Part shown: positions 26,891-47,840 of the stretch, piece after piece
Layout of the letters: every line of letters begins with the position of its first letter
Position numbering within the stretch: the first letter of the stretch is position 1
Source: Methanomassiliicoccaceae archaeon
GTDB lineage: Archaea > Thermoplasmatota > Thermoplasmata > Methanomassiliicoccales > Methanomassiliicoccaceae
DNA length: 64,000 nucleotides
Assembly: GCA_040776945.1 (NCBI GenBank)
Contig: JAXGZN010000001.1
Span: forward strand, 768,001 to 832,000
Reading direction: 5' to 3'
Notes under the pieces: generated by a model
Databases searched by the model: none
Told to the model about the DNA's origin: nothing
The model's input: only the letters and a program-made list of their open reading frames with translations
Program-made: the position numbers and the translations under genes

Positions 26891-27008
26891 AAAACGCCTT
26901 GAGAGGGGTAGGTGGCCGAAAGCGCGTCCGTGCTTCTTTCGTCAACCGTTCGCGCTGGACGCCCTCTCGCTCGCACCTATTAAATATCGTTTAACCGTTT
27001 TCCAGTCG

Positions 27009-28188: not shown

Positions 28189-28970
28189 TGCTTCTTCCGG
28201 GCCACGAACACCATCAGCTCGCTGTTGGCCTTGAACGGCCCGCCGTGATAATCGCCGTACATCTCGATGGTCTCGAAACCACAGCGGTCAAGCAGCTCCA
28301 GAGCCTCGCGGTGGAAAAGGTACCGCAGGGTGAAAACCGAGGTCACCCGGCGCAAGGGCTTGTCCTGCCTTGAGATGTCGTAGAAGTACGTGACCGTGGT
28401 CCTCTGGTTTGGCTGATCGAAGGTCTGGGCCTCGAACCAGGAGATCACCTCGCCCTGCGGGGTGAGCTTCGTCCCGCGGTGCCGCAGGAGCTGCTCCGGC
28501 CGGTCCAAACGGGGCGAGAACACCACGAAGGAGAAGAGGCCGTCATCGTCCAAATGGTCCCTTATCCGCCTCAGGGCCGCCTCCTGGTCCTTGGTGTCCA
28601 GCAGGTGGAGGAACGAGGCATAGGGGACGAACACTAGCTTGAACTTGCGGCCTAGGTCCATCTCCCTGATGTCCGCTTGCACTATGGCCACCCTTGCCTC
28701 CTCTTGGGGGCTGAGGAACGATACCTTGGTGGCGCATACGTCCAGCATCGCCGGGCTGCGGTCGACGCCGGTCACCTCGTAGCCGGCCTCGGCGAAGGGG
28801 ATGAGCACCCGCCCGGTCCCGCTCATGCAGTCCAGGACCGGACCTCCGGTCCTTTCGGCGAGGTCAAGGAAGAACCGGATGTCGTCCTTGTATTCCTCAT
28901 GCCAGATGTCGTAATACCTGGCCGAGCCTTCGTACAGGTCCAGATTCTCCGTCTCAGCGCTTATATCCAA
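28185..28970 (-). CDS. Class I SAM-dependent methyltransferase
   Basis: GGPVLDCMSGTGRV, TGVDRSPAML, QADIREM; probable TTG start at 28970 overlapping the upstream gene end. Confidence 0.85.
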   Translation of the reverse strand: MDISAETENLDLYEGSARYYDIWHEEYKDDIRFFLDLAERTGGPVLDCMSGTGRVLIPFAEAGYEVTGVDRSPAMLDVCATKVSFLSPQEEARVAIVQADIREMDLGRKFKLVFVPYASFLHLLDTKDQEAALRRIRDHLDDDGLFSFVVFSPRLDRPEQLLRHRGTKLTPQGEVISWFEAQTFDQPNQRTTVTYFYDISRQDKPLRRVTSVFTLRYLFHREALELLDRCGFETIEMYGDYHGGPFKANSELMVFVARKKQ

Positions 28971-29436
28971 AGCGCCGGAGGAGCTCCTTCCTCTTCTTGG
29001 CGTCCTCATCGGTCTCCACTCCCTTGGGCGTCTGCCCATCAACGATCCCCACGATCCCCCGGCCCAGGCCCGTCTCGGCCACCAGGACCTCGGCGGGATT
29101 GGCGGTGGCGCAGAAGATCGTGCACACCTCGGAAACCTCCTTCAGGCCCCTGAGCACGTTGATGGGATAGGCGTTGGTGAGCACGACGACGAAGGAGTGG
29201 CCGGCCCCGATGCGCTGCGCGTTCTCCGACGCACAGGCCTTTAGGGCGTCGTCATTGCCCTCCACCCGGACCAGACGGTCCCCGGAGGCCTCGCAGAACG
29301 CCACTCCGAACCTTATGCCCGGCACGGCGTTCACCATCGCCTCGTAGATGTCCTCGGCGGTCTTGATGAAATGGGCCTGCCCGACGATGATGTTGGCCTC
29401 CTCGGGCTTTACCAGCTCCACTGCCTCCGTCCTCAT
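28954..29436 (-). CDS. Adenosine-specific kinase-like protein (DUF355)
   Basis: ATG 29436; NIIVGQAHFIKT, FGVAFCEASG, AGHSF, YPINVL, IFCATANP, RFGYK. Confidence 0.88.
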   Translation of the reverse strand: MRTEAVELVKPEEANIIVGQAHFIKTAEDIYEAMVNAVPGIRFGVAFCEASGDRLVRVEGNDDALKACASENAQRIGAGHSFVVVLTNAYPINVLRGLKEVSEVCTIFCATANPAEVLVAETGLGRGIVGIVDGQTPKGVETDEDAKKRKELLRRFGYKR

Positions 29437-29532
29437 GCTTTCCCACCACAATGAGCCTCTTCCGGCGATAAATAGCCTTGCCATCTTGGTCCGGTGCAAG
29501 GTATTTCTACCGCCCATCACGTTGCTCGGTGC

Positions 29533-30330
29533 ATGTTCTTCGTCGGTCCCGCGGGCTACCCGCCGGGCAGCAAGGGGGCGCTGCAGGCGGTGGAGAACGT
29601 CCGCAAGCTGAACCTCAATGCCCTGGAGCTGCAGTTCGGGCGGAGCGTGAACCTGAGCGTCGAGCGGTCCAGGGAGCTCGCTCCCCGGGCCCGCGAGCTG
29701 GGAGTGGCGCTGTCCTGCCACGCTCCCTACTACATCAACTTCAACTCCGATGAAGAGAACAGGGCCAAGAGCGAGGAACGGCTGCTCAGCTCCCTGCGCT
29801 CCGCCGACGCCATGGACGCACGCATTGTGGTGGTCCACGCCGCATCGTACATGGGCCGCTCGCCGGAGGAAGCCACAGTCGCGGTGATCCGCAGCCTGAA
29901 GCGCATACGCAGGACCGTTGTGGACGAGGGCCTCAGGCCCGCCATCGGCCTGGAGACCATGGGAAAGACCGGCTCCTGGGGCACCTACGAGGAGATCGCG
30001 GAGGTCATGGCCGAGGTAGAAGGAGTGGAGCCGGTTCCGGACTTCGCGCACATCCACGCCCGCGGCCAGGGTTGCCTGCGCACCGAGGAGGACTTCCGGG
30101 CCGCTCTCGAGAAGGCCATGGACCTGCACCCTGGCCGGCTTCACTGCCACTTCAGCGGCATCGAGTACACCGCGAAGGGCGAGAAGCGCCACCTTCCCCT
30201 GGAGTCCAAGGAGCCTGATTTCGCCCTCCTCCGCAATGTGCTCCCGAGGTCGGGGAGGGACTTCACCATCATCTGCGAGTCCCCCGACCCATCGGGGGAC
30301 GCCGTGCTCATGAGACGGATGCTGGAATAA
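29533..30330 (+). CDS. nfo: Endonuclease IV (AP endonuclease family 2)
   Basis: HAPYYINF, VVH, ETMGK, DFAHIHAR, HCHFSGIEY...GEKRH, IICESP. Confidence 0.88.
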   Translation: MFFVGPAGYPPGSKGALQAVENVRKLNLNALELQFGRSVNLSVERSRELAPRARELGVALSCHAPYYINFNSDEENRAKSEERLLSSLRSADAMDARIVVVHAASYMGRSPEEATVAVIRSLKRIRRTVVDEGLRPAIGLETMGKTGSWGTYEEIAEVMAEVEGVEPVPDFAHIHARGQGCLRTEEDFRAALEKAMDLHPGRLHCHFSGIEYTAKGEKRHLPLESKEPDFALLRNVLPRSGRDFTIICESPDPSGDAVLMRRMLE

Positions 30331-30414
30331 CGATGTTCTCAGCTAGCGATGCCAGGACGACAACTATTTATCTCGAAATATATTGATTATCGGAAGCGAC
30401 CCTGGGTGATTATC

Positions 30415-31464
30415 ATGGCGGAACCCGCCGAAAACGGTGCAGAAGGAAGCGATTTCGAGTTCGATTGCCCGGAATGCGGCACTCATATACACGGAGAGGT
30501 GGAGCAATGTCCGAAGTGCGGGGTCGAGTTCGTCATAGAGGAGGTGACCGAGGAGGAATGCCCCGCATGCCATGCCATGATCCCACTGGAAAGCGCCTCC
30601 TGCCCGATGTGCGGGCGCTCGATGACATCGTCCCCGGAGCCTCCCCCAGAGGTCCATGAGGCCGCCAGCGCCGAACCGCCGGGCAAGGCACAGGACGAGC
30701 TGCAGCGCGAGCTGAGGGAGGAGTTCTCCGGCCTGGTGTCCGAGGTCGGCCCCATGATCGCCTTGGCCAAGGAGCACGCCATCGACACCACCGCGCCCCG
30801 CCGGCTGATCGACAAGGCGGTGGCCATGGGCAAGCGCAGGGAGATCGAGCCCGCGGTGCAAACGATGAGGGACTGCAAGGAGATGCTCGAGCGCTCCATA
30901 ACCGACCGGCTGGAAAGGGACATCATGTACCTTGAGAACCTCGCCGAGGTCGCGCGGAAGATGAGCTCCGACCACCAGTCCATAGAGAGGGCCGTCGCCG
31001 AGATCAAGGAGAGGCAGGCGGCCAAGGACCACGCCGGCGCCCTGGAGAGCGTCCGGGCGTCCAAGCGCACCGCCGAGAAGCTCACCGGCAAGTACGTCGA
31101 GGCCCACGAGATGTACGAGGCCTTGGAAAAGATGATACTGAACTCCGAGGCCTTTTACCTGGACGTACGAGAGCCGCGCAAGCTCCTCAACGAGTCCCGG
31201 GAGGCAGGGGAGAGCGGCGATTGGACCACCATGGGGATCCTCGCCCGAAAGGGGCGGGAGGAGATGAGCAAGGTCCTTCCGGAAATGCTATCGGAGGAGC
31301 TGCGAAAGGCCAAGCAGTCATTGTTGGACCTCAAGGCCAAGGGAAAGGACGTCACCTCGATGATCAAGACGCTGAAGGACGCCGGGGTGTCGATGAAGAG
31401 GGATCGGTACGAGGAGGCGCTGGAGCGCCTCACCGAGTTCCGGGACGAGGAGAAGAGGCTGTGA
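30415..31464 (+). CDS. Double zinc-ribbon protein with a helical/coiled-coil C-terminus
   Basis: CPEC, CPKC, CPAC, CPMC followed by a Pro linker and repeated amphipathic helices. Confidence 0.75.
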   Translation: MAEPAENGAEGSDFEFDCPECGTHIHGEVEQCPKCGVEFVIEEVTEEECPACHAMIPLESASCPMCGRSMTSSPEPPPEVHEAASAEPPGKAQDELQRELREEFSGLVSEVGPMIALAKEHAIDTTAPRRLIDKAVAMGKRREIEPAVQTMRDCKEMLERSITDRLERDIMYLENLAEVARKMSSDHQSIERAVAEIKERQAAKDHAGALESVRASKRTAEKLTGKYVEAHEMYEALEKMILNSEAFYLDVREPRKLLNESREAGESGDWTTMGILARKGREEMSKVLPEMLSEELRKAKQSLLDLKAKGKDVTSMIKTLKDAGVSMKRDRYEEALERLTEFRDEEKRL

Positions 31465-33357
31465 TCACGGCCTTACCGGCTCCATCTCCCGCTCAAGCAC
31501 CGACCGCTCCTGCACCTTAAGGCTGTCCGGGCTGACCGAGACCATGAACACCGCCCGCCGCTCCGATACCTGGTCCACCAGGGAGCGTACGAAGCGGATC
31601 ACGCCCTCGAAGCCGGCGTTGCTTATCAGGTAATGAAGATCGTCCAGCAGCACAATCGAAGGGCCGTCGCGGCGCACATGGTCCTCGGCCAGCATCACGA
31701 TCTTCTCCAGCGAAGGGGGCACTGTTCGGGACCCCCTGGACTCATGCTCCGTAAGCCAATATATGTCCGCCTTCCGGCCGCCGAGGCGGTCTCGAACCGT
31801 CCCGGGATTGCTGCGGCTGAACACCAGGGCCCTCATTCCCCGGTCAACCTGCCTTCCCACGAGGTCGTATGCGCGGTCCGGCCGCGGCTCCAGCACTATA
31901 TATGAGCGTCCCTCCCGCACCTCGATCTCCCCGATGGGGGTGACGTTGCCAGGGCCCAGCACCTCCCGGGCCAGCTCTGTGGTTATCTCCGAGCCCATGA
32001 GGGAGGCGAACGCCAGGACGCGGTTCATTCCGCCCTCGAGCTGTCCGGCGGTGTCCGGGCAGGCCTCGGCCACAATCTCCAGGACGTCGTCGCCTACCAC
32101 GCAGCCCCCCCTTGAGGCCACCTTCCTGAGCATGCCGATCCGGGTCGCTTGGTCCAGCGGCCCGATCTCCACCACCAGCCCGGACTCCATCCTCGCCGCC
32201 AAGCGGTCGGCGAGGGAGGGGATCCTTCTAGGCTCGCGGTCGGCGGTCATCACCACCTGCTTCCCGGCGGCGATCAGGCGGTTCACCGCCCGCATGAGGT
32301 CGTCCTGCGCCCCCTCCCTGCCCGACAGCATCTGGACGTCGTCGATCAGCAGCGCATCGGCGGTGTCCAGTTCCTGGCGCAGGGAGGCCCGCGCCGCCTC
32401 CGTGGTGCCGAGGTCCACCGAGTCCAGGGGTAGATAGACGACGTTCAGCTCCCGCCTCAGCCTCTTCATCTCATGCCCCACCGCCTGAAGGAGGTGGCTC
32501 TTGCCCATCCCCTGGCGGGAGTGGATCACCAGCGGGTTGTATCGCCGTCCGGGCTCGGCGGCCACCGCCCGGGCGGCGGCCTCGGCGAAGCGGGAGCCGG
32601 GGCCTCCCACGAACGCCGAGAACGAGGCCCGCGGGTCCATACGAGGTATCGAGGGGCTCTCCTCTTCCCGGGACGCGCAGCGCGGGCAGTAACCCAGAAG
32701 ATCGATGGGACCTCCGCAGTCGCAGCAGACCCCTATGCCCTGGGAATCAGCGCGCATCTTGTGGTACTGGAGAACGAGGTCGTAAACCCCGCGGGCCTGC
32801 TTCTCTGCACGATGGTCGTCAGTCCCCAGGCCGGCAGCGGCCAAGAGGTACCCTCCGGTGTTCTCCGGCTCCGCCCGGCGCAGCTTGTCCGCCCTCACCT
32901 TCTCGGGAGGCAGGACGTTCCGGGGAGCCTCCGCGCGACGGACCTTGGCCCCCGGGAAGAGCTGTTCGAAGTCCTTGAGGTTCACCTCGGAGTGGAGGGA
33001 GACGACCGCCTCAGGACGGCAAGCGTCGTACCACAGGTACTCCGAAGCCTTCTCCCCGAGGAACCACAGCTCGTCCATGCCAATAGGGCGGAAGACATGG
33101 AGGCAAAGCGACGGTGACCCTGCGTACACCGAGAGAATGGACTCCGAGCGCTCGCCTTCGGCGCTGAGGACCACCTTGATGTAGCCGTTCAGGGAGGCCG
33201 AGCGGGCGCTCTCCGCCGCCTGGTCCAAGACGCCATCGCCCCCCTTCCACCGGGAGACGACCAGCCCCTGAGGGATGCCGAGCTCGAGAAGCACACTGAC
33301 CGGCGCAGCATCGCCCGGCGCGCTTAAAGCGTTTATGTCATGGCTCCGTTCCAGCAT
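31465..33357 (-). CDS. Multidomain protein: DUF2226/PATAN-like N-terminus, Zn ribbon, DnaA-type AAA+ domain, DUF835 (inactive KaiC-like) C-terminus
   Basis: FSAFVGGPGSRFA...YNPLVIHSRQGMGKSHLLQAVGH...LLIDDVQML...QVVMTADREP...DRLAARMESGL; C-terminal FSRSNP, IYWLT, VLLDDLHYLISNAGF, ERSVLERE. Confidence 0.8.
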   Translation of the reverse strand: MLERSHDINALSAPGDAAPVSVLLELGIPQGLVVSRWKGGDGVLDQAAESARSASLNGYIKVVLSAEGERSESILSVYAGSPSLCLHVFRPIGMDELWFLGEKASEYLWYDACRPEAVVSLHSEVNLKDFEQLFPGAKVRRAEAPRNVLPPEKVRADKLRRAEPENTGGYLLAAAGLGTDDHRAEKQARGVYDLVLQYHKMRADSQGIGVCCDCGGPIDLLGYCPRCASREEESPSIPRMDPRASFSAFVGGPGSRFAEAAARAVAAEPGRRYNPLVIHSRQGMGKSHLLQAVGHEMKRLRRELNVVYLPLDSVDLGTTEAARASLRQELDTADALLIDDVQMLSGREGAQDDLMRAVNRLIAAGKQVVMTADREPRRIPSLADRLAARMESGLVVEIGPLDQATRIGMLRKVASRGGCVVGDDVLEIVAEACPDTAGQLEGGMNRVLAFASLMGSEITTELAREVLGPGNVTPIGEIEVREGRSYIVLEPRPDRAYDLVGRQVDRGMRALVFSRSNPGTVRDRLGGRKADIYWLTEHESRGSRTVPPSLEKIVMLAEDHVRRDGPSIVLLDDLHYLISNAGFEGVIRFVRSLVDQVSERRAVFMVSVSPDSLKVQERSVLEREMEPVRP

Positions 33358-33412
33358 AACGAGGGCCGAAGAAAAACATTAAATTGGGGAATGGCTTGAT
33401 GGAAACCATCAT

Positions 33413-33514
33413 GCCACTGTAGCTCAGCGGTAGTTCCCGGCCGGCCGGGGACCGCGAAAGAGCGACAGTTTCGTAAACTGTAGGCCGGGGGTTCGAAACC
33501 CCTCAGTGGCTCCA
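33413..33514 (+). tRNA. tRNA-Thr(CGT) with encoded CCA and a 25-nt D-loop intron (33433-33457)
   Basis: Acceptor GCCACTG/CAGTGGC, D stem GCTC/GAGC, anticodon stem ACAGT/ACTGT with loop TTCGTAA, T arm GGGGG-TTCGAAA-CCCCT, U discriminator; BHB with central helix GCGG/CCGC and bulges TAG and GAA. Confidence 0.92.
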
Positions 33515-33515
33515 C

Positions 33516-34790
33516 TCATCCCTTCTTGAGGTAATCGTTGACGATCTTGATGGCGCAGACGTCGCCGCACATCGAGCATCCTTCCTTCTCATCGGTCACT
33601 CCCCGCGAGCGGTACTCTCTGGCCTTGGCCTCGTCTATGGCCTCACGGTACATGCCGTCCCAGTCCAGCGCCTTCCGGGCCAGGGACATCCGCATGTCCC
33701 GGTCCTTGCCCCGGCCCCGGGCGATGTCCGCGGCATGGGCCGCGATCTTCGACGCTATGAGGCCGTCCTTCACATCCTGGGGGGTAGGCAGGGAAAGATG
33801 CTCGGCCGGGGTCACGTAGCACAGGAAGTCAGCTCCGTGGTACGCGGCGAGAGCGCCGCCGATCGCCGCGGTGATGTGGTCGTATCCCGGAGCGATGTCC
33901 GTCACCAGGGGGCCGAGGACGTAGAACGGGGCGCCGTCGCACACGCTCTTCTGCAGCCGGACGTTCGCCTCCACCTGGTCCAGGGGCACGTGCCCTGGCC
34001 CCTCTACCATGGCCTGAACCCCGGCCCGGCGGCATCGGCGGACCAGCTCCCCGAGGTTCAGGAGCTCCTGCACCTGCGGACCGTCGGTGGCGTCATGCAC
34101 GCACCCTGGGCGGAAGCCGTCCCCCAGGGACAGAACGAACCCGTGCTCCCTCGCCAGCTCCAGCAGGTAGTCGAAGTTCTCATACAGCGGGTTCTCCTTT
34201 CCGTTGTGAAGAATCCACGCCACCAGGAAGGAGCCTCCCCGGGAAACCACATCGGTTATCCGGGGGCTCCGCCTCAGCCGCTCCACCGCCTCCCGGGTGA
34301 TGCCGCAGTGCACGGTCATGAAGTCCACGCCGTCCTTGGCATGCTGGACGATCCCGTTGAAGATGTCGTCCTCGTCCATGTCCACCAGGGCCCCCTTCCT
34401 TGCCATCCGCAGCCCGGTCTGGTAGATGGGCACCGTTCCGACCGGGACATCGCATGAAGCGAGCACCTTGCGGCGGATGGCGTCGATGTCCCCGCCGGTG
34501 CTGAGGTCCATTATCGCGTCGGCTCCGTACTGGAGGGAGATGCGGAGCTTCTCCATCTCCTCCTCCACCTCCACCCGGTCGCGGGAGGTCCCGAGGTTGA
34601 CGTTGACCTTGACCCTGAGCCCCTCCCCGATGCCGCAGGCCCGCGGCCGGTGCACGGGATTGCAGGGGATGACAACTCGGCCCTCGCGGAACCTCCTTGT
34701 GAGAACATGCTCATCGACGCCCTCGCTGCGGGCGATCTCCCGGATCCTGTCGCTATACGGTTCGCTTGCCACGACCATCTCGATCGGCAC
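33516..34790 (-). CDS. thiC: Phosphomethylpyrimidine synthase
   Basis: KVNVNLGTS, MDLSTGG, GTVPIYQ, VSRGGS, SLGDGFRPG, EGPGH, YDHI, TPAEHL, CSMCGDVC. Confidence 0.97.
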   Translation of the reverse strand: MPIEMVVASEPYSDRIREIARSEGVDEHVLTRRFREGRVVIPCNPVHRPRACGIGEGLRVKVNVNLGTSRDRVEVEEEMEKLRISLQYGADAIMDLSTGGDIDAIRRKVLASCDVPVGTVPIYQTGLRMARKGALVDMDEDDIFNGIVQHAKDGVDFMTVHCGITREAVERLRRSPRITDVVSRGGSFLVAWILHNGKENPLYENFDYLLELAREHGFVLSLGDGFRPGCVHDATDGPQVQELLNLGELVRRCRRAGVQAMVEGPGHVPLDQVEANVRLQKSVCDGAPFYVLGPLVTDIAPGYDHITAAIGGALAAYHGADFLCYVTPAEHLSLPTPQDVKDGLIASKIAAHAADIARGRGKDRDMRMSLARKALDWDGMYREAIDEAKAREYRSRGVTDEKEGCSMCGDVCAIKIVNDYLKKG

Positions 34791-39617: not shown

Positions 39618-40319
39618 ACGCTCAGGGACTCCATAGCGGGGCTCGATCGGATATTCAGGACAGACATCGACGCTCCCAAGGTGATATTGGTCTCCGGTCC
39701 ACCCGGCTCGATGAAGACCAGCTTCTGTCATTCGGTCATGTCAGGTTATCTGAACAAGGCCGGCGAGATCGGACTGTACGTCACTTTGGAAGAGACCGTG
39801 GCCAGTCATCTCAGCAACATGCGGGGCCTGGGGATAGAGCCAAGCTCCAACATGGAGATCTCGGACATCACCGACCTCCGGGAGCTGGACGAGATCATCG
39901 AGGAGGACCGGCCTACCGATTACATCCAGTTCATTGAACAGACCATCGAGTACTACAAGAAGAAGCACGGCGATCGGTTCACAGTTTTCGCACTGGACTC
40001 TCTGGGGGCCCTGTACTCGCTCATGGACGACAGCGAAAACATGCGAAAGAAGATGTTCTATTTCTTCAAGACGCTGCGCGACCAGAACCTGGTGTCGTTC
40101 ATCGTCATGGAGAGGTCCAGGGGCGGGCCGTCCGACCTCCTCGGCAACGAGGGGTTCCTGGTGGACGGGATCATCGAGCTTGGGCTCGACCGCGCCAGGG
40201 GCAAGCTGGCCCGGTTCATCAGGGTCGAGAAGATGAGGGCCTGCAAGCACAGCATGGAAAAGCACACCGTCGAGGTCGGGGACAAGGGAATGACCATCCT
40301 CGGTCCGACCCTTGGGTAA
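39618..40319 (+). CDS. KaiC/RAD55-family ATPase; probable ACG start at 39618 (first canonical start is GTG 39681)
   Basis: In-frame LRDSIAGLDRIF precedes VILVSGPPGSMKT; VTLEE, FALDSL, FLVDGIIEL, RVEKMRACKH. Confidence 0.85.
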   Translation, partial: TLRDSIAGLDRIFRTDIDAPKVILVSGPPGSMKTSFCHSVMSGYLNKAGEIGLYVTLEETVASHLSNMRGLGIEPSSNMEISDITDLRELDEIIEEDRPTDYIQFIEQTIEYYKKKHGDRFTVFALDSLGALYSLMDDSENMRKKMFYFFKTLRDQNLVSFIVMERSRGGPSDLLGNEGFLVDGIIELGLDRARGKLARFIRVEKMRACKHSMEKHTVEVGDKGMTILGPTLG

Positions 40320-40371
40320 TGACATGACCGCATACACGGCGCAGCCAGCAGAGGAATCCGGAGGATCGCAC

Positions 40372-41433
40372 ATGGCCAATGATGAGACCCCCATATGGGA
40401 GGTCATTGAGGAGTTCAAGGAGAAGGTTAAAAGCCAGGAATACGAGCTCAAGAAGCGCAGGGACAAGCTGGAGAGCACCGAGGAGGAGCTGTCCAGGGTC
40501 CACAAGGAGCTCGAGGAACGGACCGCCCAACTGGATGCCCGGGAGCGGGACATCCAGGGACGGCTTTCCGAACTTGTCCCGCGGGAGAACGCGGTCCAGG
40601 AGGCCGAGCTGGCCCTGCGCGCCCAAGAGAGGGAACTGCGTCTCCGCGAAGAGGAGGTGCAGCGCTCCAGGGTGGAGATCGAGCGCCGCCAGGCGGACCT
40701 CAGTCGCCAGGAGGAGGCCCTGGTCGCTCTGTCGGAGCGCTCAGCGGCATACGAGAGCAGCATCCAGGCAATGAGCGAGCAGATCAAGGAGATGGAGTCC
40801 GGACTTCTCAAGGACCAGGAACGCGCCAGGCAGCTCCTCGAAGAGCTCACCACGGCGAGAGAGGGCCTGCTGGCAAAGGGCAAGGTCCTTGCGGACCAGG
40901 AAGCCCTGCTGGCCGAGGGCCGCAGGATCGTCCTGGAGGAGCAGAAGCGCTTCGTCGGCTGGGAAAGGACCCTGAACGAGAGGGAGGAGAGCATCGCCCG
41001 CCGTTCATCGCTGCCGCCTCTCGAGGCGCCCACCGAAGAGCCCGAGCTGTCAGAGGCCTCACCGCCACATGAGCCTGAGCCAGTTGAGGCCGAGCCGGAG
41101 ATAGAGCCATCCATCGCCGAGCCAGAACCGGTTGCTGAGCCCGAACCGATCGAGGAGGACGAGGCCCCCACACCGGTCTACCGCGCCGAGGAGCCCGAAC
41201 CGATCGAGGAGGACGAGGCCCCCACACCGGTCTACCGCGCCGAGGAGCCGAGGCCGTCCGGGCCGGCATGCCCCAACTGCTCGGAGCCGGTCGCTGAGCA
41301 CGACGATAGATGCGGGCATTGCGATCACGCATTGAAGGAAACGCCCAAGGCAGGGGAAGCGGAGAAGGGGGACACGAAAGAGGACCCGTCGAAGAAGCCG
41401 GTTTCCATCCGCAAGATCATCCGCCGGAAGTAG
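40372..41433 (+). CDS. Long coiled-coil protein with an acidic Pro/Glu linker, Zn ribbon and basic tail
   Basis: GGAGG before ATG 40372; about 200 aa of heptad-rich E/R/L sequence; CPNC...CGHC; ends SIRKIIRRK. Confidence 0.8.
   Translation: MANDETPIWEVIEEFKEKVKSQEYELKKRRDKLESTEEELSRVHKELEERTAQLDARERDIQGRLSELVPRENAVQEAELALRAQERELRLREEEVQRSRVEIERRQADLSRQEEALVALSERSAAYESSIQAMSEQIKEMESGLLKDQERARQLLEELTTAREGLLAKGKVLADQEALLAEGRRIVLEEQKRFVGWERTLNEREESIARRSSLPPLEAPTEEPELSEASPPHEPEPVEAEPEIEPSIAEPEPVAEPEPIEEDEAPTPVYRAEEPEPIEEDEAPTPVYRAEEPRPSGPACPNCSEPVAEHDDRCGHCDHALKETPKAGEAEKGDTKEDPSKKPVSIRKIIRRK
41137..41244 (+). repeat. Perfect 54-bp tandem duplication (EPEPIEEDEAPTPVYRAE x2)
   Basis: 41137-41190 is identical to 41191-41244. 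Confidence 0.95.
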
Positions 41434-41576
41434 GCCAGAAACCTCTTTTTTATTCATTCGTTTTTATCACATTGGATGGGTTCACTTTTTGTTAATTGTA
41501 TGCTCAGATATAAATAAAGAAAATCTGCTGATACAACCAATTTCCAACACAATATATAAAAATGCCAGGTGGGTTC

Positions 41577-44500
41577 ATGAAAGGTCGCATATTGGCCAGT
41601 AGAGCTGCGAGCGTCATGATCGCGATAGGCCTTCTTTTAACGCCGATCGCGAGCGTGGTGTTCCTCATGGGTACGACAGGGGGCGCGGGCCCGCTGCCGT
41701 CTGACTACTCGAACGGCGACCGCGTTATCGGTTCGGACTACGCGGTCGAAACGTGGAGCGTGACGTCCACATACACTATGAACGGGAACCTGACCATCAG
41801 GTCCGGCGGTGTGGTCACGGTCTCCGGCGGAGGCCTTGTGTTCGCTGAGAACACCGGTCCCGATAAGATCGCCGGTACCGCTGATGATCGAGTGTATACG
41901 CTAACGATAGAGGACGGCGGAAAGCTCATACTGAGCAACTCGACGCTCACCACTAACCTGAACCAGCTCAACTCCTTCCCCAGCTTGGGGGTCATCGTCC
42001 GCAACGGAGGCGTCCTGGAGGCATATGACAGCGTGCTGTCCTTCCCGGGCCACCTGGTGGTCGACGATTCCACGCTGACCATGTGGAGGTCCAACATCAC
42101 CGGCAACGATCAGGTCGGCATCTACTGTAATGACACCTTCTTCCCGGAGCAGATATTCCGATACGCCCCGGTCCTGATGTTCATGTCATCTACCGTCAAC
42201 CTGTTCGATTCCTCGCTGCCGAACATCTACCAGACCCCCAACTCCACCGCGTACAACACGACCGAGATGTACACGAGCATGTACAATCACAAGTATCCGT
42301 TCGCGGTCGATGTGAACAACCCAATAACCAAGGCCAGGGAGAGCACGGCCTACTATCTGGAAAGGATGCCCTCCGCCAAGGGCGCCAGCGATAACACCGG
42401 CTCGGTGCTGCGGAACCTCCAGATGTCCGACAGGCTGTATTACAACGTGACGAACGGACAGACCATGGCGCTGGACGGGTTCGACGCCGGCGGCCTAATG
42501 TTCAGCGCCTCCGACAGCGTGGTGGCGAGGCTGAACGTTCAATACTACACCGATATTGGATACTCCAGCCCCTCAACCGTGCAGTACCAGTTCCGCAACG
42601 GAGCTACCGGCTCGACGGCCCTTTCGTTCACCAATACGCCGATCAACCCGGTGACCGGCACGGCGGACGAGGCTACGGCCTCGGCGACCCTGCCTCTCAT
42701 GTCCTCCCTGGACCTGTACGGCCTGAACCTTAGGTTCACAAACAGCGGCGGCCAGACCATCCACATCAACAAGATATGGATAACCTTCGAGATAATCGCA
42801 CCCACCTATACCAGCATCAATCTGGCCGGCAACACTCAGCTGACCGCGGTCAACACCTTCCTTGGCGTGGACTTCTCCAACAAGGAGAACCACAACACCA
42901 TGGTGCTCCGCGACAACTCGATGGCCTACCTGTACGGAGTGTCTCTGGACAACAGCACGGAGAAGACGGTCTCTCCGGCCGATAGGCAGCCCGCCTTCGT
43001 GACCATAGACAAGACCTTGGAGGCCACCGTCTCGTCCAAGTCGGTGAACGACACCACCGGTGAGAACATCGGAAGCCTTACCGCGATAGATACTTCGTAC
43101 TACCAAATAATGCCTGGTAGGGTCATGGAGATCAACGGGTTCAACACAAGCGATCTTAACGGACCCCTGTCTGGAGCGACCATCACTCTGACATATTCGA
43201 CAAGCTCGGGCTACACTCCAGGCAATTACCTACAATGGAGAGCGGACGACGGAACCTTCCATAACACCGCAATCCGGCCCCAATATACGCCAACTGCGGT
43301 ATCTGCCAGCTTTAACCTTTATGGCAATGGCGTTACCGAGGTGTCCGACGTCAGGAACCTAGAGGTCAGGTTCGCGAATGCGCACGCTAGCGCCAACGTG
43401 ATCGTGAGCAAACTATCCGTTGCGATGACCGTCAGTCCGACCATCTACATCTACCGCTGGGCGAACCTGATGGTCACCGACGAGCAGTCCCTGCCGGTCT
43501 ACGGCGCTACCGTGTCGTCAGTGCTCCAGAACTCCGGCGCCCCGGCGTACTACTACACGCCCGGCGGCCTTAGCGCCTATCCGTCCAGCGAGGTGCTCCA
43601 GTACCTCGGCAAGGATCTGACGAGCTACGGCGCCACCGACAACGAGGGAAAGGCCAGCATGCCGTTCCTGTCAGAGGTGCTCAACCAGGCCAACCCCAAC
43701 CCGTACGCGGCCTTCGCCTACGAGCTGACGGTGACCTACCAGAACTCGACCGGTTCAGTGTTCACCAACACAACTGGACTGGCCTTCCGCCCCTACCCGG
43801 ACATGACCCCTGCCAATACTTGGAAGAGGGTCAACATCACCATGCCCTCGCTTGCCCTCGAGCTCCCGGACCTGGTGATGCTGCCGATCAGCCTAGCCCC
43901 GGCGACGATCTATGACGGGGAGAGCGTGCAGATATCGGCGGTCCTTCATAACCGCGGCAGGACCACCGCCACCAGGGTGGAGGTGTCCATCATCGGCTAC
44001 ATCAACGGCTCGATACCTGCGTTCTGGTCCAACCAGACCATCGACACGATAGCGCCCGGCACTGAGAACGATCAGCCGCTTGCTACCGTGACCTGGGCCC
44101 ATATACCTGCGGGCAAGCACATCGTCAGCGTGATAATCGACCCCGCTCGCAAGATATCCGAGGAGAGCAAGGCCAACAACGTGATGTCCAAGCAGTTCAC
44201 CGTCCTGGCGAACCTGCCCGACCTCACGCTCAGCTCGACGGACATCGTCTTCGATCCCCAGCCGGCCAGCTCCAGCGACCTGGTCACCGCCACCATCTAC
44301 GTCAACAACACTGGGCGGGCCTCGGCCGACAATGCCACCATCTCGCTGTATGCCGGTGATGCCAGCCTCGGAGGCCAGTTCATCGGGTCCACGGTGGTGA
44401 CGATATCCGCCGGAAGCTTCGTGAAGACCACCTACAGCTGGAAGCCTTCCCAGATCGGCACCTATCCAGTGTTCGTTTACGTGAACGCCGACCGCTCCAT

Positions 44501-47500
44501 AGTGGAGTACGATTTCGACAACAACGAGGCGTTCAAGTCCATGACCGTCACCATGACCATTGACGGCGAAGACCTGGTGGTCGGAGGGGTGGACTACCCA
44601 ACGCTGACCATAGCCGGTCCCAACGCCTTCAACTGGGCCTACAACGTGGCGGTCATAAACAACGGCGTGCTGACGATCAGCAACACCGCTTTCACCGAGG
44701 TTCAGTCCAGCGCGTACCAGAGCAGGATCGTCGTGCAGGACCACGGCAAACTGGTGCTCACCGACGGGACGATGCTGAACTCCAACTTCAACATGGACAT
44801 GTATCTGATGGACAACGCCAACCTTACGGTGACGAACTCCAAGATATCGAACTCTGTGCGCATCCGGGCGGACGGCGCGAGCTCGGTGAACATAATGTCC
44901 TCGGAGATCGGCGCGGACCTTGTGGCTCCTGAGACCTCGCACGCCCACGTGTTCGTACAGGACACTACCTTCAGCCGCGCGTGGTCCTCCTTCGGAGGGC
45001 ACGCGGTGGCCGATGTTACCAACGTGTCGATAGCTTCGCTCAACGCCCAGGGCTCCGCGGTGATCAACCACTACCGCTGGGTCAAGGTCGTGGCCCTCGA
45101 TGGCACCGGGGAGAGGCTCCCCGGCTCTTACGTCGCCATCAGGCACCTGGTCAATGGGCAGTATGCGAGCGGGATGACCGGCGCGGACGGGTCCATAACC
45201 TTCAGGGTCCTGACCGATGTCCGCACCGCAGGCATGACCGTCCACCAGGGCTTCATTGGGGACTACATCGCCAACACCACCTACACCTATCAGGGCCAGA
45301 GCTTTGCCGGCCAGCACCCCATGAACGTGGGCATAGTCGGCTACTCGGAGCCTCTGGTCAGGTCGGTGCTGCCCCCGGTGACGATCCCTGTCCCCGGCGC
45401 CCTGCCGGACCTGGACCCTCCCATACATGTGTCCACCAGCACCCCGACCCATTATCAGGACGTTACAGTCTCGACCACCGTGTCCAACATCGGCGTGGTG
45501 GCGGCCCATAACGTCCTGGTGATGTTCAACGACACCGGCGTGACGTTCTATCAGTACACCATACCGGTGATCCAGCCGGGCCAGTCGGTGGACATCAGCA
45601 CCATCTGGAACGCCAGGCAGCTAGGGGAGCGCAACATCAGCGTGGTCATCGACCCCTACGGCAGGATCAACGAACTGGACAAGACCAACAACGGCAACTA
45701 CACCATCGTGAACGTCCAGGGCATAGCCGATCTTTCCGTCCAGAGGAACGATGTGACCATAAGTCCGACGACCCCGGCAAGGGGCCAGACCTCCACGATA
45801 TCGGCGAACATATGGAACACCGGCGATGTCTCCGCCAGCAACGTGCTGGTGAGCTTCTACGTCACCGCGCCAGGAGGCACCGTCAGAACATTGCTGGCCG
45901 ACGTCAACGTGGCCTACATCGACGTGAATGAGCACGGCGTGGCCACCACCGCGTGGACCCCTAGCCAGCCGGGCACCTACACCATCGAGGTGATAATCGA
46001 CCGCAACTCGGCGATCACCGAGATATCGGAGGAGAACAACAGCGTGTCGTTCTCCCAGAAGGTGCTGAACTACGCCGACCTGAGGCCCAGCTTCATAGTG
46101 TTCAATCCCGCCAGCCCGGTAAGCGTCGGGCAGAACGTCAATATAGAGGCGGCGGTGAAGAACATCGGTGAGGTGCCGGCGACCAACGTCGTCGTCCACT
46201 TCTACCGCGGCACCACGGCCGGTACCCTGATCGACACCCAGATCATCAGCTCTATCAACCCCGATCAGACGGTCACCGTGACCGGGCGCTGGACGGCCAC
46301 GCTTCTCGGCGGGGGGGTCTCGAGCACCCCGATAACGGTCTCCGTGAACCCCGCCGGCGAGGGCCGCATCAACGAGATCGACTATAACAACAACGCGATC
46401 AGCCAGAACCTGGTGGTCAACGACCTGAGGGCCGACCTCCTGTTCGTTGACGATATAGTCATAACCAGGGGCAGCGAGGCCGTGAGCCACGCAGCGCAGG
46501 GCGAGACGGTCGACATTTCCGTCATCGCCGCGAACGGAGGAAGCACCACCGCGATATCCGCGGCGTTCTACTTCTACGCGGTGAACGAGGATGACGAGCG
46601 GACCCTCATCGGCATCGCCCTGAAGAACCTGGAGGCCGGGGCCGAGGTGAAGGTCAACACCACATGGCAGATCAACCTCACCATGGGCACCTACGGCATC
46701 CTGGTCATAGCTAACGCGGATGGCATAATCGATGACAAGGACGCCACCAACAACGAGGTGGCCGCGCTCTTCACCATCGACGCGCCCAACGCTGCGGTGG
46801 AGATATACACCCTGGACAGCACGTCCTACGCCCCGGGCACCAACATCTTCGTGACCGGCAAGGTCTTCAACAGGAACACCTCGCAGGCCATACCTGGTGC
46901 ATCGGTGTCGGTATGGCTGGAGCGCAACGGCGTGCAGGTGGGCGAGAAGTTCAACGGCAGCACCAACGCCGAAGGCATCTTCGCCATCCCGCTGTATGTG
47001 CCAGAGGGCTCATCGGGCAGCTACCAGATCCATGGCGAATCGGCCATGGGGGACAAGGTGTTCACCTCCTCAAAGAACGTGAGCATCGTTCAGGTCGACG
47101 GTGGCGGCATCCCATGGTACATCTACCTGATGATCCTGGGGGTCATCGCCGCGGCCATCATCCTCTTCTCCGCCTGGCTGTACAAGTATGGTCTGGGAAA
47201 GATGGTGGAGTGCGGGGAGTGCGGGGCCCTGATCCCGGACTCCTCCAAGCGCTGCCCCAAGTGCGGCGTGGAGTTCGAGGTCGGCACCGCGAAGTGCAGC
47301 GAATGCAGCGCATGGATACCGTCGAACTCCACCACCTGTCCGGAGTGCAATGCCCGGTTCATCGGGGACGCCATCGAGGAAGAGGAGGACGCCTACCTCA
47401 AGAAGATGAGGGAACAGTACGAGGCCTACGTGGAAACCTACCGCGAGGAAGCGAAGAAGTCCATGGGCAAGAAGTACTCCGACGGCAAGTTCCAGGATTG

Positions 47501-47840
47501 GTTCAAGAAGCAGCCGAGCTACGTAAGCTTCGAGAACTGGCTGTCCAAGGAGGAGGAGAAGCGGAAGTTCACCGGGGTCTCCTGCCAGAGCTGCGGCACC
47601 CTCAACCCGCGCGGCTCGCCGGTCTGCCATAAGTGCGGCTCGAACCTAGAGGTAAAGAAGCCAGAGGCGCCGGAGGAGCAGTCCAAGCCCGAGGCCCCCA
47701 GGCCGATGAGGCGCATCGTGCGCCGGCCCGTGGAGAAGAGGACGGTCAAGTCCGAAGCTCCGGCGGAGGAGCCCAAGGCCGAGGAACAGCCCAAGGCCGA
47801 GGAACAGCCGAAGGCCGAAGAGGACAAGCCAGCGGAGTGA
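41577..47840 (+). CDS. Giant surface protein (about 2087 aa): beta-helix-like regions, about 6 CARDB domains, a single TM and cytoplasmic zinc ribbons
   Basis: Signal peptide; repeated LPDL...N.G...A..V.V.F...W......G...I.V..D....I.E....NN; TM WYIYLMILGVIAAAIILFSAWLY; six CxxC pairs after the TM; many N-x-S/T sequons. Confidence 0.88.
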   Translation: MKGRILASRAASVMIAIGLLLTPIASVVFLMGTTGGAGPLPSDYSNGDRVIGSDYAVETWSVTSTYTMNGNLTIRSGGVVTVSGGGLVFAENTGPDKIAGTADDRVYTLTIEDGGKLILSNSTLTTNLNQLNSFPSLGVIVRNGGVLEAYDSVLSFPGHLVVDDSTLTMWRSNITGNDQVGIYCNDTFFPEQIFRYAPVLMFMSSTVNLFDSSLPNIYQTPNSTAYNTTEMYTSMYNHKYPFAVDVNNPITKARESTAYYLERMPSAKGASDNTGSVLRNLQMSDRLYYNVTNGQTMALDGFDAGGLMFSASDSVVARLNVQYYTDIGYSSPSTVQYQFRNGATGSTALSFTNTPINPVTGTADEATASATLPLMSSLDLYGLNLRFTNSGGQTIHINKIWITFEIIAPTYTSINLAGNTQLTAVNTFLGVDFSNKENHNTMVLRDNSMAYLYGVSLDNSTEKTVSPADRQPAFVTIDKTLEATVSSKSVNDTTGENIGSLTAIDTSYYQIMPGRVMEINGFNTSDLNGPLSGATITLTYSTSSGYTPGNYLQWRADDGTFHNTAIRPQYTPTAVSASFNLYGNGVTEVSDVRNLEVRFANAHASANVIVSKLSVAMTVSPTIYIYRWANLMVTDEQSLPVYGATVSSVLQNSGAPAYYYTPGGLSAYPSSEVLQYLGKDLTSYGATDNEGKASMPFLSEVLNQANPNPYAAFAYELTVTYQNSTGSVFTNTTGLAFRPYPDMTPANTWKRVNITMPSLALELPDLVMLPISLAPATIYDGESVQISAVLHNRGRTTATRVEVSIIGYINGSIPAFWSNQTIDTIAPGTENDQPLATVTWAHIPAGKHIVSVIIDPARKISEESKANNVMSKQFTVLANLPDLTLSSTDIVFDPQPASSSDLVTATIYVNNTGRASADNATISLYAGDASLGGQFIGSTVVTISAGSFVKTTYSWKPSQIGTYPVFVYVNADRSIVEYDFDNNEAFKSMTVTMTIDGEDLVVGGVDYPTLTIAGPNAFNWAYNVAVINNGVLTISNTAFTEVQSSAYQSRIVVQDHGKLVLTDGTMLNSNFNMDMYLMDNANLTVTNSKISNSVRIRADGASSVNIMSSEIGADLVAPETSHAHVFVQDTTFSRAWSSFGGHAVADVTNVSIASLNAQGSAVINHYRWVKVVALDGTGERLPGSYVAIRHLVNGQYASGMTGADGSITFRVLTDVRTAGMTVHQGFIGDYIANTTYTYQGQSFAGQHPMNVGIVGYSEPLVRSVLPPVTIPVPGALPDLDPPIHVSTSTPTHYQDVTVSTTVSNIGVVAAHNVLVMFNDTGVTFYQYTIPVIQPGQSVDISTIWNARQLGERNISVVIDPYGRINELDKTNNGNYTIVNVQGIADLSVQRNDVTISPTTPARGQTSTISANIWNTGDVSASNVLVSFYVTAPGGTVRTLLADVNVAYIDVNEHGVATTAWTPSQPGTYTIEVIIDRNSAITEISEENNSVSFSQKVLNYADLRPSFIVFNPASPVSVGQNVNIEAAVKNIGEVPATNVVVHFYRGTTAGTLIDTQIISSINPDQTVTVTGRWTATLLGGGVSSTPITVSVNPAGEGRINEIDYNNNAISQNLVVNDLRADLLFVDDIVITRGSEAVSHAAQGETVDISVIAANGGSTTAISAAFYFYAVNEDDERTLIGIALKNLEAGAEVKVNTTWQINLTMGTYGILVIANADGIIDDKDATNNEVAALFTIDAPNAAVEIYTLDSTSYAPGTNIFVTGKVFNRNTSQAIPGASVSVWLERNGVQVGEKFNGSTNAEGIFAIPLYVPEGSSGSYQIHGESAMGDKVFTSSKNVSIVQVDGGGIPWYIYLMILGVIAAAIILFSAWLYKYGLGKMVECGECGALIPDSSKRCPKCGVEFEVGTAKCSECSAWIPSNSTTCPECNARFIGDAIEEEEDAYLKKMREQYEAYVETYREEAKKSMGKKYSDGKFQDWFKKQPSYVSFENWLSKEEEKRKFTGVSCQSCGTLNPRGSPVCHKCGSNLEVKKPEAPEEQSKPEAPRPMRRIVRRPVEKRTVKSEAPAEEPKAEEQPKAEEQPKAEEDKPAE
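47772..47825 (+). repeat. 18-bp tandem repeat x3 (PKAEEQ)
   Basis: cccaaggccgaggaacag twice plus one degenerate copy. Confidence 0.85.

Follow-up and report, generated by a model that had tools for sequence, protein, structure and literature searches.

Bacterial DnaA carries its ATPase in domain III, an AAA+ core followed by a lid, alongside domains I, II and IV; to our knowledge, archaea are taught to lack this domain, which is regarded as textbook-bacterial. Hda (TIGR03420) is a DnaA-derived AAA+ protein of a single domain, about 230 aa long, which has no domain IV and acts via protein contacts, not via DnaA boxes. FlaH (ArlH) belongs to the archaellum motor, where this small RecA/KaiC-like domain exerts its role by docking onto further motor proteins. 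DUF835 ('iKaiC') domains and archaeal KaiC networks are, as far as we know, almost untouched experimentally. In the excerpt of Galperin et al. 2018 (PMC5847659) used here, the only DUF835 architectures given are REC-DUF835 and REC-PAS-PAS-DUF835. The present study concerns a gene, hereafter T, whose single archaeal product joins a DnaA-type AAA+ module to a DUF835 domain, and its convergent neighbour, hereafter C1 (coordinates in Table 1). Both lie in the window, the stretch of 64,000 nucleotides that was analysed (contig JAXGZN010000001.1, positions 768,001 to 832,000, of the Methanomassiliicoccaceae archaeon assembly GCA_040776945.1). The genome around the window is archaeal, 2.17 Mb long and 99.8% complete, and the nearest protein relatives of T carry the source label Methanomassiliicoccus sp. 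(order Methanomassiliicoccales, class Thermoplasmata, phylum Thermoplasmatota according to NCBI).

T is a member of a large undescribed family of cytoplasmic proteins of the class Thermoplasmata. From the N- to the C-terminus, it is composed of a PATAN/DUF2226-like N-domain, a variable coiled coil, a zinc ribbon, a DnaA-type AAA+ module (core and lid), and an inactivated KaiC/RecA-like DUF835 domain. Against Pfam, Bac_DnaA (PF00308) matched residues 241-397 with an E-value of 1.8e-41 and 142.4 bits (cut-off 23), and DUF835 (PF05763) matched residues 493-625 with an E-value of 6.3e-23 and 81.5 bits (cut-off 33.1), while residues 1-240 yielded no Pfam match. The models of DnaA domain IV (Bac_DnaA_C, PF08299) and domain I (DnaA_N, PF11638) had no match in T at E<=1 and none in the complete match lists (E<=0.01) of 21 class-wide homologs, and neither is among the 25 commonest of the 61 families matched in 29 close relatives. 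Bacterial DnaA proteins retrieved by the word-indexed protein search described below do have PF08299.

Among the NCBIfam models, the best agreement is with DnaA: TIGR00362 aligned to T over positions 98-335 of its 437 (i.e., domain III and the lid) with 205 bits, below its cut-off of 343.9. Lower scores were obtained with the Hda model TIGR03420 (91.4 bits, cut-off 194.8) and with the helicase-loader models IstB NF038214 (26 bits, cut-off 200) and DnaC (12 bits, cut-off 357). The Orc1 models gave one match, of 17.6 bits (cut-off 311), and this fell on residues 555-614 of the DUF835 part. Hda_lid matches occur in 10 of the 29 close relatives, and the KaiC ATPase model PF06745 had no match in T and reached 16.4 bits (cut-off 26.6) in one T homolog. 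When solved structures were searched, true DnaA proteins came first, with E-values of 2.3e-45 for B. subtilis (8BTG), 1e-37 for T. maritima (2Z4R) and 2e-26 for Aquifex (1L8Q), ahead of E. coli Hda (5X06; 8.5e-10) and of the helicase loaders (about 1e-3). A preliminary description of this DNA, made by reading its letters, had proposed a DnaA-type AAA+ module without domain IV and a DUF835 domain in one protein, and had suggested profile searches as a check. These bear the proposal out, with Bac_DnaA and DUF835 above their cut-offs and Bac_DnaA_C absent, and the domain III motifs it listed are all present in the translation (FSAFVGGPGSRFA, YNPL, GMGKSHLLQA, LLIDDVQ, TADR, DRLAARMESGL and AGQLEG).

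The ATPase residues were mapped by aligning T to E. coli K-12 DnaA and Hda and to B. subtilis DnaA (8BTG), and their conservation was counted among 27 diverse members of the family and among the 29 close relatives. The Walker A Lys and the first Walker B Asp are kept throughout (27/27 and 29/29), the second Walker B Asp in 25/27 and 29/29, the sensor I Asp in 26/27 and 28/29, and the Arg finger in 25/27 and 25/29. Given the catalytic motifs are kept in nearly all members, the family looks like a working ATPase, hydrolysis-competent as a whole.

The window copy departs from this pattern. ATP hydrolysis by E. coli DnaA requires the sensor II Arg, and this residue is Arg in 25 of the diverse members, with Gly in the window protein and Asn in that of locus L098; among the close relatives, it is Arg in 22, Ser in six, which are the nearest kin of the window protein, and Gly in one, the window's own. 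Its loss thereby reads as a recent, local change in the window's small sub-lineage. The equivalent of E. coli R245 is Arg in 6/27 diverse members, i.e., it is not conserved, and among the 29 close relatives it is Arg in 24 and Gly in three. With Gly at both positions, the window copy of T probably hydrolyses ATP slowly and would be biased toward the ATP-bound state. When the preliminary description reported a lost sensor II Arg beside a retained Arg finger, it was right about the window protein, and the loss does not extend to the family. At the place of the initiator-specific motif, T lacks 4 residues relative to B. subtilis DnaA and 7 relative to E. coli DnaA; more distant relatives (e.g., P0031) have a DnaA-like length at this position. 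The CxxC-CxxC ribbon upstream of the AAA+ core, seen in the same reading, is confirmed by cysteines C211, C214, C224 and C227, which are invariant in 29/29 close relatives, and a ribbon is present in 21/27 diverse members.

DUF835 is present in 29/29 close and 21/21 class-wide relatives of T, and the genome carries nine DUF835 matches. An AlphaFold2 (AF2) model of residues 471-630, built from 40 sequences, presents a pLDDT of 94.3. Searched against the PDB with Foldseek, it yielded 159 matches at E<=1e-3, and the best 50 of these are RecA/KaiC-superfamily or related P-loop ATPase domains. The structural matches include FlaH 4YDS (E 5e-6, TM 0.66), many RecA proteins, the inactive RecA-like Elp4/5/6, KaiC (8FWJ, 7DY1, 8DBA) and PH0250. 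At the P-loop position, the 27 diverse members share a conserved [ST]-R-x-N-P, in which R515 and P518 are invariant, and none of them has a GK[ST] P-loop (Walker A) in the DUF835 part. The predicted fold and this substitution support the view that the DUF835 of T is an inactive KaiC-like domain, as had been proposed from the letters. The same label, 'DUF835 (iKaiC)', is found in the excerpt of Galperin et al. 2018 (PMC5847659).

The N-domain is conserved class-wide, with G80 and G101 invariant, and an AF2 model covering residues 1-235 is confident, with a pLDDT of 85-95, between residues 30 and 160. Its ESM Atlas model presents a TM of 0.51/0.61 to a DUF2226 cluster, of 0.45-0.49 to PatA_N clusters, and of 0.54 to a Thermoplasmatota cluster of ~342-aa proteins, 87% of which have DUF835. 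The DUF2226 (PF09987) and PatA_N/DUF4388 (PF14332) profiles had no match in T or in the genome at E<=1, and PF09987 matched 0/151 genomes of the phylum. Hence, of the 'DUF2226/PATAN-like' N-terminus first described, the resemblance of predicted folds stands and a profile match is absent, and we treat the name as a fold-level lead only. No solved relative was found by Foldseek at E<=1e-3 (the top VIA match has a Z of 5.3), a result that neither names a fold nor proves a new one. Within the genome, tblastn found no paralog of the N-domain below an E-value of 0.36, and the family profile finds T alone.

The word-indexed search retrieved ~30 proteins at 39-100% identity to T, each with both Pfam domains, and the 29 close relatives are strongly conserved over the full length, with a mean column identity of 58%. 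For the genome surveys, the class was taken as Thermoplasmata and the phylum as Thermoplasmatota (families are numbered f, genomes G and loci L). The tallies of T and C1 over 201 class genomes include one unpublished genome, G098, on which no claim depends. A six-frame search with T gave matches in 166/201 class genomes, with strong AAA+ and DUF835 matches in most families. Twenty loci from this search and one from a contig search were studied individually, and together with the window they make up the 22 loci used for gene neighbourhoods. At all 21, one ORF of 549-780 aa encodes the protein and matches both Bac_DnaA (E-values between 1e-28 and 1e-71) and DUF835 (between 1e-20 and 1e-31), so the absence of the fusion from relatives, named at the outset as a sign of a chimera, did not arise. 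The N-terminal 150-360 residues of these 21 homologs had no Pfam match.

In some lineages, the family was not found. In f2, which belongs to the same order, a protein query gave only weak matches (E>=1.5e-7, in 6/20 genomes), and the family profile at E<=1e-20 found T in 0/19 genomes. It was not found in f20 (0/19 genomes) nor in G166, the sole genome from another genus of the window's family.

Searching 1.84 billion library representatives with a profile of 27 members returned 40,996 proteins at E<=1e-3, mostly ordinary DnaA. The best 149 of these comprise 55 with AAA+ and DUF835, 44 with two AAA+ modules and no DUF835, and 34 with a single AAA+. DnaA-type modules also occur in other builds in the phylum: ORFs of ~430-470 aa with a zinc ribbon and AAA+ but no DUF835 (e.g., in f45, where 23/24 genomes match) and ORFs of ~1,250 aa. 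Further builds come from library representatives: P0179 (812 aa; HEAT repeats, DnaA module and DUF835), P0131 (1348 aa; coiled coil, DnaA module and C-terminal double zinc ribbon), and P0156 (1876 aa; MshEN and two DnaA modules). T was initially presented as a repurposing of the module; it is no one-off case, but one member of a class-wide family, with related DnaA-like modules in other builds across the phylum. The 44 double-AAA+ representatives are bacterial proteins of ~570-710 aa, labelled Gemmatimonadota/Longimicrobiales, in which DnaA domain III occurs twice in tandem and domain IV is missing (e.g., P0033, P0038, P0045, P0063 and P0064); they are another non-initiator use of the DnaA ATPase. 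A second, weak Bac_DnaA match exists in the genome of the window (positions 651699-651992 of the same contig; L002, ORF 1237-1974, 245 aa) at 26.8 bits. This ORF, which scores 31 bits with the family AAA+ profile, is probably a different, small AAA+ of IstB/DnaC type.

The AAA+ module is the variable part of the protein. In f3, of the window's order, the orthologs between thiC and C1 are 335-356 aa long; family-built profiles find the N-domain (E ~1e-24) and DUF835 (E ~1e-55) in them, and neither the zinc ribbon nor the AAA+ was detected. In f5, the orthologs beside C1 are 452-459 aa long and have the N-domain, coiled coil and zinc ribbon running straight into DUF835, with no AAA+ detected. 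Hence the constant core is the N-domain and DUF835, and the DnaA-type module is a cassette inserted between zinc ribbon and DUF835, given these syntenic orthologs keep the core without it. The AAA+-less orthologs argue strongly against an essential replication role of T, and favour a regulatory or energising add-on to a scaffold.

The genome also has two Orc1/Cdc6 genes, the nearer ~47 kb from T. With these two genes, the missing domains I and IV, and AAA+-less orthologs in two families, T is very unlikely to be a replication initiator, and the earlier judgement that it is none holds.

To place the module, a tree of 110 AAA+ domains was inferred with IQ-TREE (LG+C20, quick search). It comprises 47 archaeal DnaA-DUF835 modules, 41 bacterial DnaA (every second of 79 bacterial loci, and E. 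coli), the 20 modules of 10 tandem proteins, and E. coli Hda and DnaC. One clade (SH-aLRT 96) holds all 41 bacterial DnaA, 10/10 C-terminal and 4/10 N-terminal tandem modules, and 2/47 archaeal modules (P0161 and P0179). The remaining 45, the window's included, fall outside it, in four supported groups within an unresolved comb that also contains the long-branched Hda. An approximately unbiased (AU) test did not reject a single clade for the 45 (p-AU 0.94; the constrained tree is 34 log-likelihood units better than the unconstrained quick one), a result weakened by the 45-module group having been defined after the first tree was seen. DnaC has a branch length of 10 and Hda of 4, and the two Orc1 proteins of the genome had no match to the family AAA+ profile at E<=1e-3. 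Given such a DnaC branch and unalignable Orc1, the tree is effectively unrooted, and we claim neither a donor nor a direction of transfer. By score, DnaA is closest to the module (E 2e-45); in this quick tree, whose root is unreliable, 45/47 archaeal modules lie outside the bacterial DnaA clade.

These data bear on the possibility that the fusion arose in assembly, as a chimera, or that a bacterial dnaA was acquired recently and is decaying, to which the otherwise bacterial occurrence of DnaA-type modules and the window protein's lack of the sensor II Arg might point. The fusion is, however, a single ORF at all 21 other loci, in many families and independent assemblies; the ~30 proteins with both domains span 39-100% identity and the close relatives average 58% per column; and the archaeal modules lie outside the bacterial clade, where the AU test allows them one clade of their own. 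The single-ORF fusion across the 21 loci and the tree placement refute a chimera, and we give this explanation practically no weight.

C1, which the preliminary description did not mention, is the most consistent partner gene of T, ahead of KaiC. ORFs within ±9 kb of T were clustered for the 22 loci, and C1 is the immediate downstream, convergent gene in 17/22, including lineages that share nothing else. Its product has a double zinc ribbon (DZR) with invariant cysteines, a variable Pro/Ala/Glu-rich linker, and a conserved helical repeat domain of ~255 residues; its likely start is the ATG at 30415, its Atlas entry begins at residue 23, and its Atlas neighbours are Thermoplasmatota hypothetical proteins only. 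A profile of the helical domain found it in 154/201 class genomes, and the absences are those of T: 0/20 genomes of f2, 0/19 of f20, and none in G166.

Co-location was counted by eye from place listings for the 84 genomes with a C1-domain match at E<=2.1e-48, and the figures are lower bounds. A C1-domain match lies <=1.5 kb from an AAA+-bearing T match in at least 69/84 genomes, beside the AAA+-less short form in at least 9/84 (G103, G152, G159 and G180 of f3; G002, G029, G039, G049 and G059 of f5), and beside a DUF835 piece at a contig end in at least 2/84 (G139 and G170). Among the matches listed, the two are on different contigs in 3/84 (G017, G072 and G174), and the remaining 1/84 (G006) has no T place listed. 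As relatives are not independent, these counts overstate the statistical weight of the association. A complex prediction for T residues 22-630 with C1 scored 0.00 (mark 0.32), which gives no answer either way.

A KaiC-linked module is the second recurrent neighbour. In L089, L091, L100 and L101, T and convergent C1 are followed by a KaiC ATPase of a single domain (PF06745, E-values between 1e-31 and 1e-35) and then by the zinc-ribbon protein C6; in the first three of these, as in the window, KaiC and C6 are followed by C11, a giant CARDB-repeat protein. By tblastn, KaiC lies within ~8 kb of T in 9/22 loci, window included (one is a weak match of 50 bits), and the KaiC-C6 pair is near T in 7/22. 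The link to KaiC signalling that the preliminary description proposed thus receives genomic support. The genome has 15 PF06745 matches, four of which are in the window (878-1549, 1693-2139 and 39630-40304 on the plus strand; 55813-56436 on the minus strand, in a 611-aa ORF). No archaellum genes were seen in the T neighbourhoods surveyed.

The reading that we hold, with slightly better than even confidence, is that T is an ATP-driven, oligomerising, non-initiator switch in a KaiC-linked module. The N-domain and DUF835 would form a protein-protein scaffold whose partner is the convergently encoded C1, joined in many lineages by the KaiC ATPase, the coiled-coil zinc-ribbon protein and the giant CARDB surface protein. 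The DnaA-type cassette between zinc ribbon and DUF835 would, driven by ATP, switch oligomerisation, its Arg finger operating in trans as it does in DnaA filaments, and would thereby set the assembly state of the scaffold; the KaiC ATPase module may connect to the large surface protein. The oligomerisation, partner binding and signalling role of T are what we infer from the observed domain identities, conservation, synteny, co-occurrence and cassette nature of the AAA+.

Several observations weigh against this reading. KaiC is near T in under half of the loci examined, and T and C1, being convergent, are not co-transcribed. In f9 and f17, T has no adjacent C1 (L092, L093 and L096), and the best C1-like matches there are weaker and on other contigs. 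The helical domain of C1 has many paralogs per genome (up to 17 matches), so its co-occurrence with T is less specific than it looks. We also infer, rather than observe, that T associates with itself or touches C1 or KaiC, and the gain or loss of the cassette is not polarised. In addition, the genes around T in the window's order and in f6 include gyrB, gyrA, the Lhr helicase, the OGG glycosylase and the AP endonuclease. Lastly, the DnaA-like segment at the initiator-specific motif and the full catalytic set in most members make a nucleic-acid-dependent mode possible.

These last points lead to the main rival, which we consider unlikely: that T is a DNA-transaction factor whose AAA+ forms polymers on DNA, single-stranded or duplex, as domain III of DnaA does, and which serves in chromosome organisation, repair or replication control, be it as a regulator of Orc1 origins or linked to gyrase or repair, DUF835 and the N-domain being mere regulatory add-ons. 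Its AAA+ is nearest to true DnaA, the catalytic set is kept, most members have the DnaA-like segment just mentioned, and zinc ribbons can bind nucleic acid. In 8/22 loci, namely the window, L003 and those of f6/f26, T is beside thiC-gyrB-gyrA; for the window and f6/f26, an OGG glycosylase, an adenosine-kinase-like gene and an Lhr helicase are close by as well, to which the window adds an AP endonuclease. This gyrase and repair synteny is limited to a few related families and lost in others, however, while C1 persists elsewhere, and the f3 and f5 orthologs retain place and partner without any AAA+. Moreover, T has neither the DNA-recognition domain IV nor domain I, the window copy has lost the R245 and R334 equivalents and has a shortened initiator-specific-motif segment, and the nearest orc1 lies ~47 kb from T.

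A role in anti-virus defence or in a mobile element, using AAA+ and KaiC-like NTPases, was also considered, as defence islands often contain multi-domain NTPases that carry zinc ribbons and coiled coils. IS605-type OrfB/TnpB fragments lie 5 kb from T in the window, and PADLOC gave weak matches to mad8 (20 bits), LmuB (22.7 bits) and JetC (17-18 bits). The LmuB and JetC matches fall on the linker and helical part of C1 and on a C6-like coiled coil, at levels short of a PADLOC assignment, and the transposase fragments are peculiar to the window. T itself is near-universal in many families, with one main copy and stable synteny, which one expects of a core gene rather than of a patchily distributed island; we regard such a role as highly improbable.

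A bolder extension of the switch reading, which we put forward as a rather doubtful conjecture, is that the DnaA-type modules of Thermoplasmatota are an old sister lineage of bacterial DnaA rather than recently imported from bacteria, still forming ATP-dependent helical filaments that gate a KaiC-based machine linking the cytoplasm to the giant CARDB surface protein, via the fused inactive KaiC domain and zinc-ribbon partners. If true, this would be the first non-replicative, archaeal use of an initiator-clade AAA+, and the DnaA ATPase module would be a portable switch independent of origin recognition.

Table 1. Features of T, equivalences of its ATPase residues, and neighbouring genes in the window.
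Feature	Position	Strand	Basis or remark
T, whole gene	31465..33357	-	open frame, 630 aa; N-domain, zinc ribbon, DnaA-type AAA+ and lid, DUF835
N-terminal alpha/beta domain, residues ~22-166	32860..33294	-	PATAN/DUF2226-like by predicted fold only
CxxC-x9-CxxC zinc ribbon, residues ~208-230	32668..32736	-	cysteine conservation
DnaA-type AAA+ core, residues 241-397	32167..32637	-	PF00308 match, residue mapping
AAA+ lid (domain IIIb), residues 398-468	31954..32166	-	TIGR00362 match reaching residue 467
DUF835, residues ~484-628	31474..31908	-	PF05763; RecA/KaiC-like fold without P-loop
Walker A	T K286		E. coli DnaA K178
Walker B	T D339/D340		E. coli DnaA D235/D236
Sensor I	T D373		E. coli DnaA D269
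Box VII	T R385		E. coli DnaA R281
Arg finger	T R389		E. coli DnaA R285 (kept)
Sensor II	T G438		E. coli DnaA R334 (lost)
R245 equivalent	T G349		E. coli DnaA R245 (lost)
C1: double zinc ribbon, low-complexity linker, ~255-aa helical repeat domain	30349..31464	+	Pfam DZR; alignment
tRNA gene, 99 nt, between thiC and T	33413..33511	+	Rfam RF00005, 58 bits, E 2.9e-12
KaiC-family ATPase, single-domain	39681..40319	+	PF06745 E 1.2e-30; 6.3 kb from T
C6: coiled-coil protein, C-terminal CxxC...CxxC	40312..41433	+	ORF; no Pfam match
C11: 2092-aa CARDB-repeat protein, transmembrane segment, double zinc ribbons in C-terminal tail	41562..47840	+	CARDB E 1.2e-68, DZR

Upstream of T, the tRNA gene is on the opposite strand, which leaves T only 55 nt of upstream DNA of its own and fits T being a separate transcription unit. 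ARAGORN called no tRNA on 33000-33800; given its length, the tRNA is probably intron-containing. A TTTAAT located ~25-30 nt before the ATG of T is a possible TATA box. The promoter and terminator scan used a sigma-70 model and is uninformative for an archaeon. The T/C1 stretch is partly present in 16 RNA-library runs, and contigs identical to the window (one base off in one run) were found in four runs of three studies, from activated sludge and an anaerobic digester. The identical contigs cover parts of both T and C1, and gaps in the cover prove nothing. They are weak support for the expression of the two genes, since they show neither strand nor level and DNA carry-over is possible.

Three further observations concern the annotation of the window. 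The Lhr helicase and OGG glycosylase genes are separated by a pair of neighbouring minus-strand ORFs (25684-26976) that contain IS605 OrfB/TnpB pieces (HTH_OrfB_IS605; OrfB_IS605 and a Cas12f1-like TNB) and look like a TnpB gene that has been split or has decayed. The 412-aa ORF at 28954-30192 (-) overlaps the AP endonuclease 2 gene at 29494-30330 (+). Of this ORF, the longest there, the C-terminal ~165 residues alone match the adenosine-specific-kinase family known from relatives; the true gene on the minus strand is therefore much shorter. A 476-aa Ser/Arg-rich ORF at 39741-41171 (-), antisense to the KaiC and coiled-coil genes and without a Pfam match, is almost certainly spurious, a product of high G+C.

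The proteins of the T family are already in public databases under automatic names, such as 'DnaA/Hda family protein', 'DUF835 domain-containing protein', 'chromosomal replication initiator protein DnaA' and 'archaellum biogenesis ATPase FlaH'; the first and third of these are misleading for annotators. The full-text literature searched, which did not cover the 2017 archaeal KaiC-hub survey, yielded no account of a protein joining DnaA and DUF835, nor of any DnaA-type protein in Thermoplasmatota. We rate T as a combination of known kinds (a DnaA/Hda-type AAA+ and an iKaiC output domain) and not as a categorically new system. Its significance lies first in showing that a DnaA-type AAA+ is common in Thermoplasmata and spread across Thermoplasmatota in several architectures, always without the origin-recognition domain. 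T also offers a testable entry to the function of DUF835/'iKaiC' domains and to archaeal KaiC networks, and its natural variants, with or without the cassette and with or without the sensor II Arg, are a probe of the DnaA ATPase switch away from the origin. Finally, the family bears on the evolution of initiator-clade AAA+ proteins and on their movement between domains of life.

Compared with bacterial DnaA (8BTG, 2Z4R, 1L8Q), T shares the AAA+ core and lid of domain III at 33-43% identity over ~230 residues; sensor I, the Walker A and B motifs and the two box VII Arg are kept, as is the sensor II Arg in the majority of the family. Unlike DnaA, it has no domains I, II and IV and is flanked instead by the PATAN-like N-domain, the zinc ribbon and DUF835; it falls outside the bacterial DnaA clade, its host uses Orc1/Cdc6, and the window copy has no sensor II Arg. 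Hda is the described protein that it resembles in keeping a DnaA-derived AAA+ without domain IV, yet T has three extra domains and scores DnaA above Hda.

As for the other half of the protein, the archaeal REC-DUF835 proteins, as they appear in the excerpt of PMC5847659, are like T in their C-terminal DUF835, its RecA/KaiC-like fold and degenerate P-loop, and their taxa, which include Thermoplasmata. T differs from these REC/PAS-DUF835 proteins in having a DnaA-type AAA+, a zinc ribbon and a PATAN-like domain upstream of DUF835. FlaH/ArlH (4YDS) is the best structural match of this DUF835, which, unlike FlaH, has no GK[ST]; FlaH binds nucleotide, as its 4YDS entry contains ATP and Mg. The tandem double-DnaA 'DnaA/Hda family' proteins of Gemmatimonadota (P0033, P0038, P0045 and others) are bacterial, unlike T, and have a second AAA+ module in tandem but neither N-domain nor zinc ribbon nor DUF835. 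They are nevertheless the nearest non-archaeal matches after the T family, at ~40% identity, and share with it a non-initiator domain III without domain IV.

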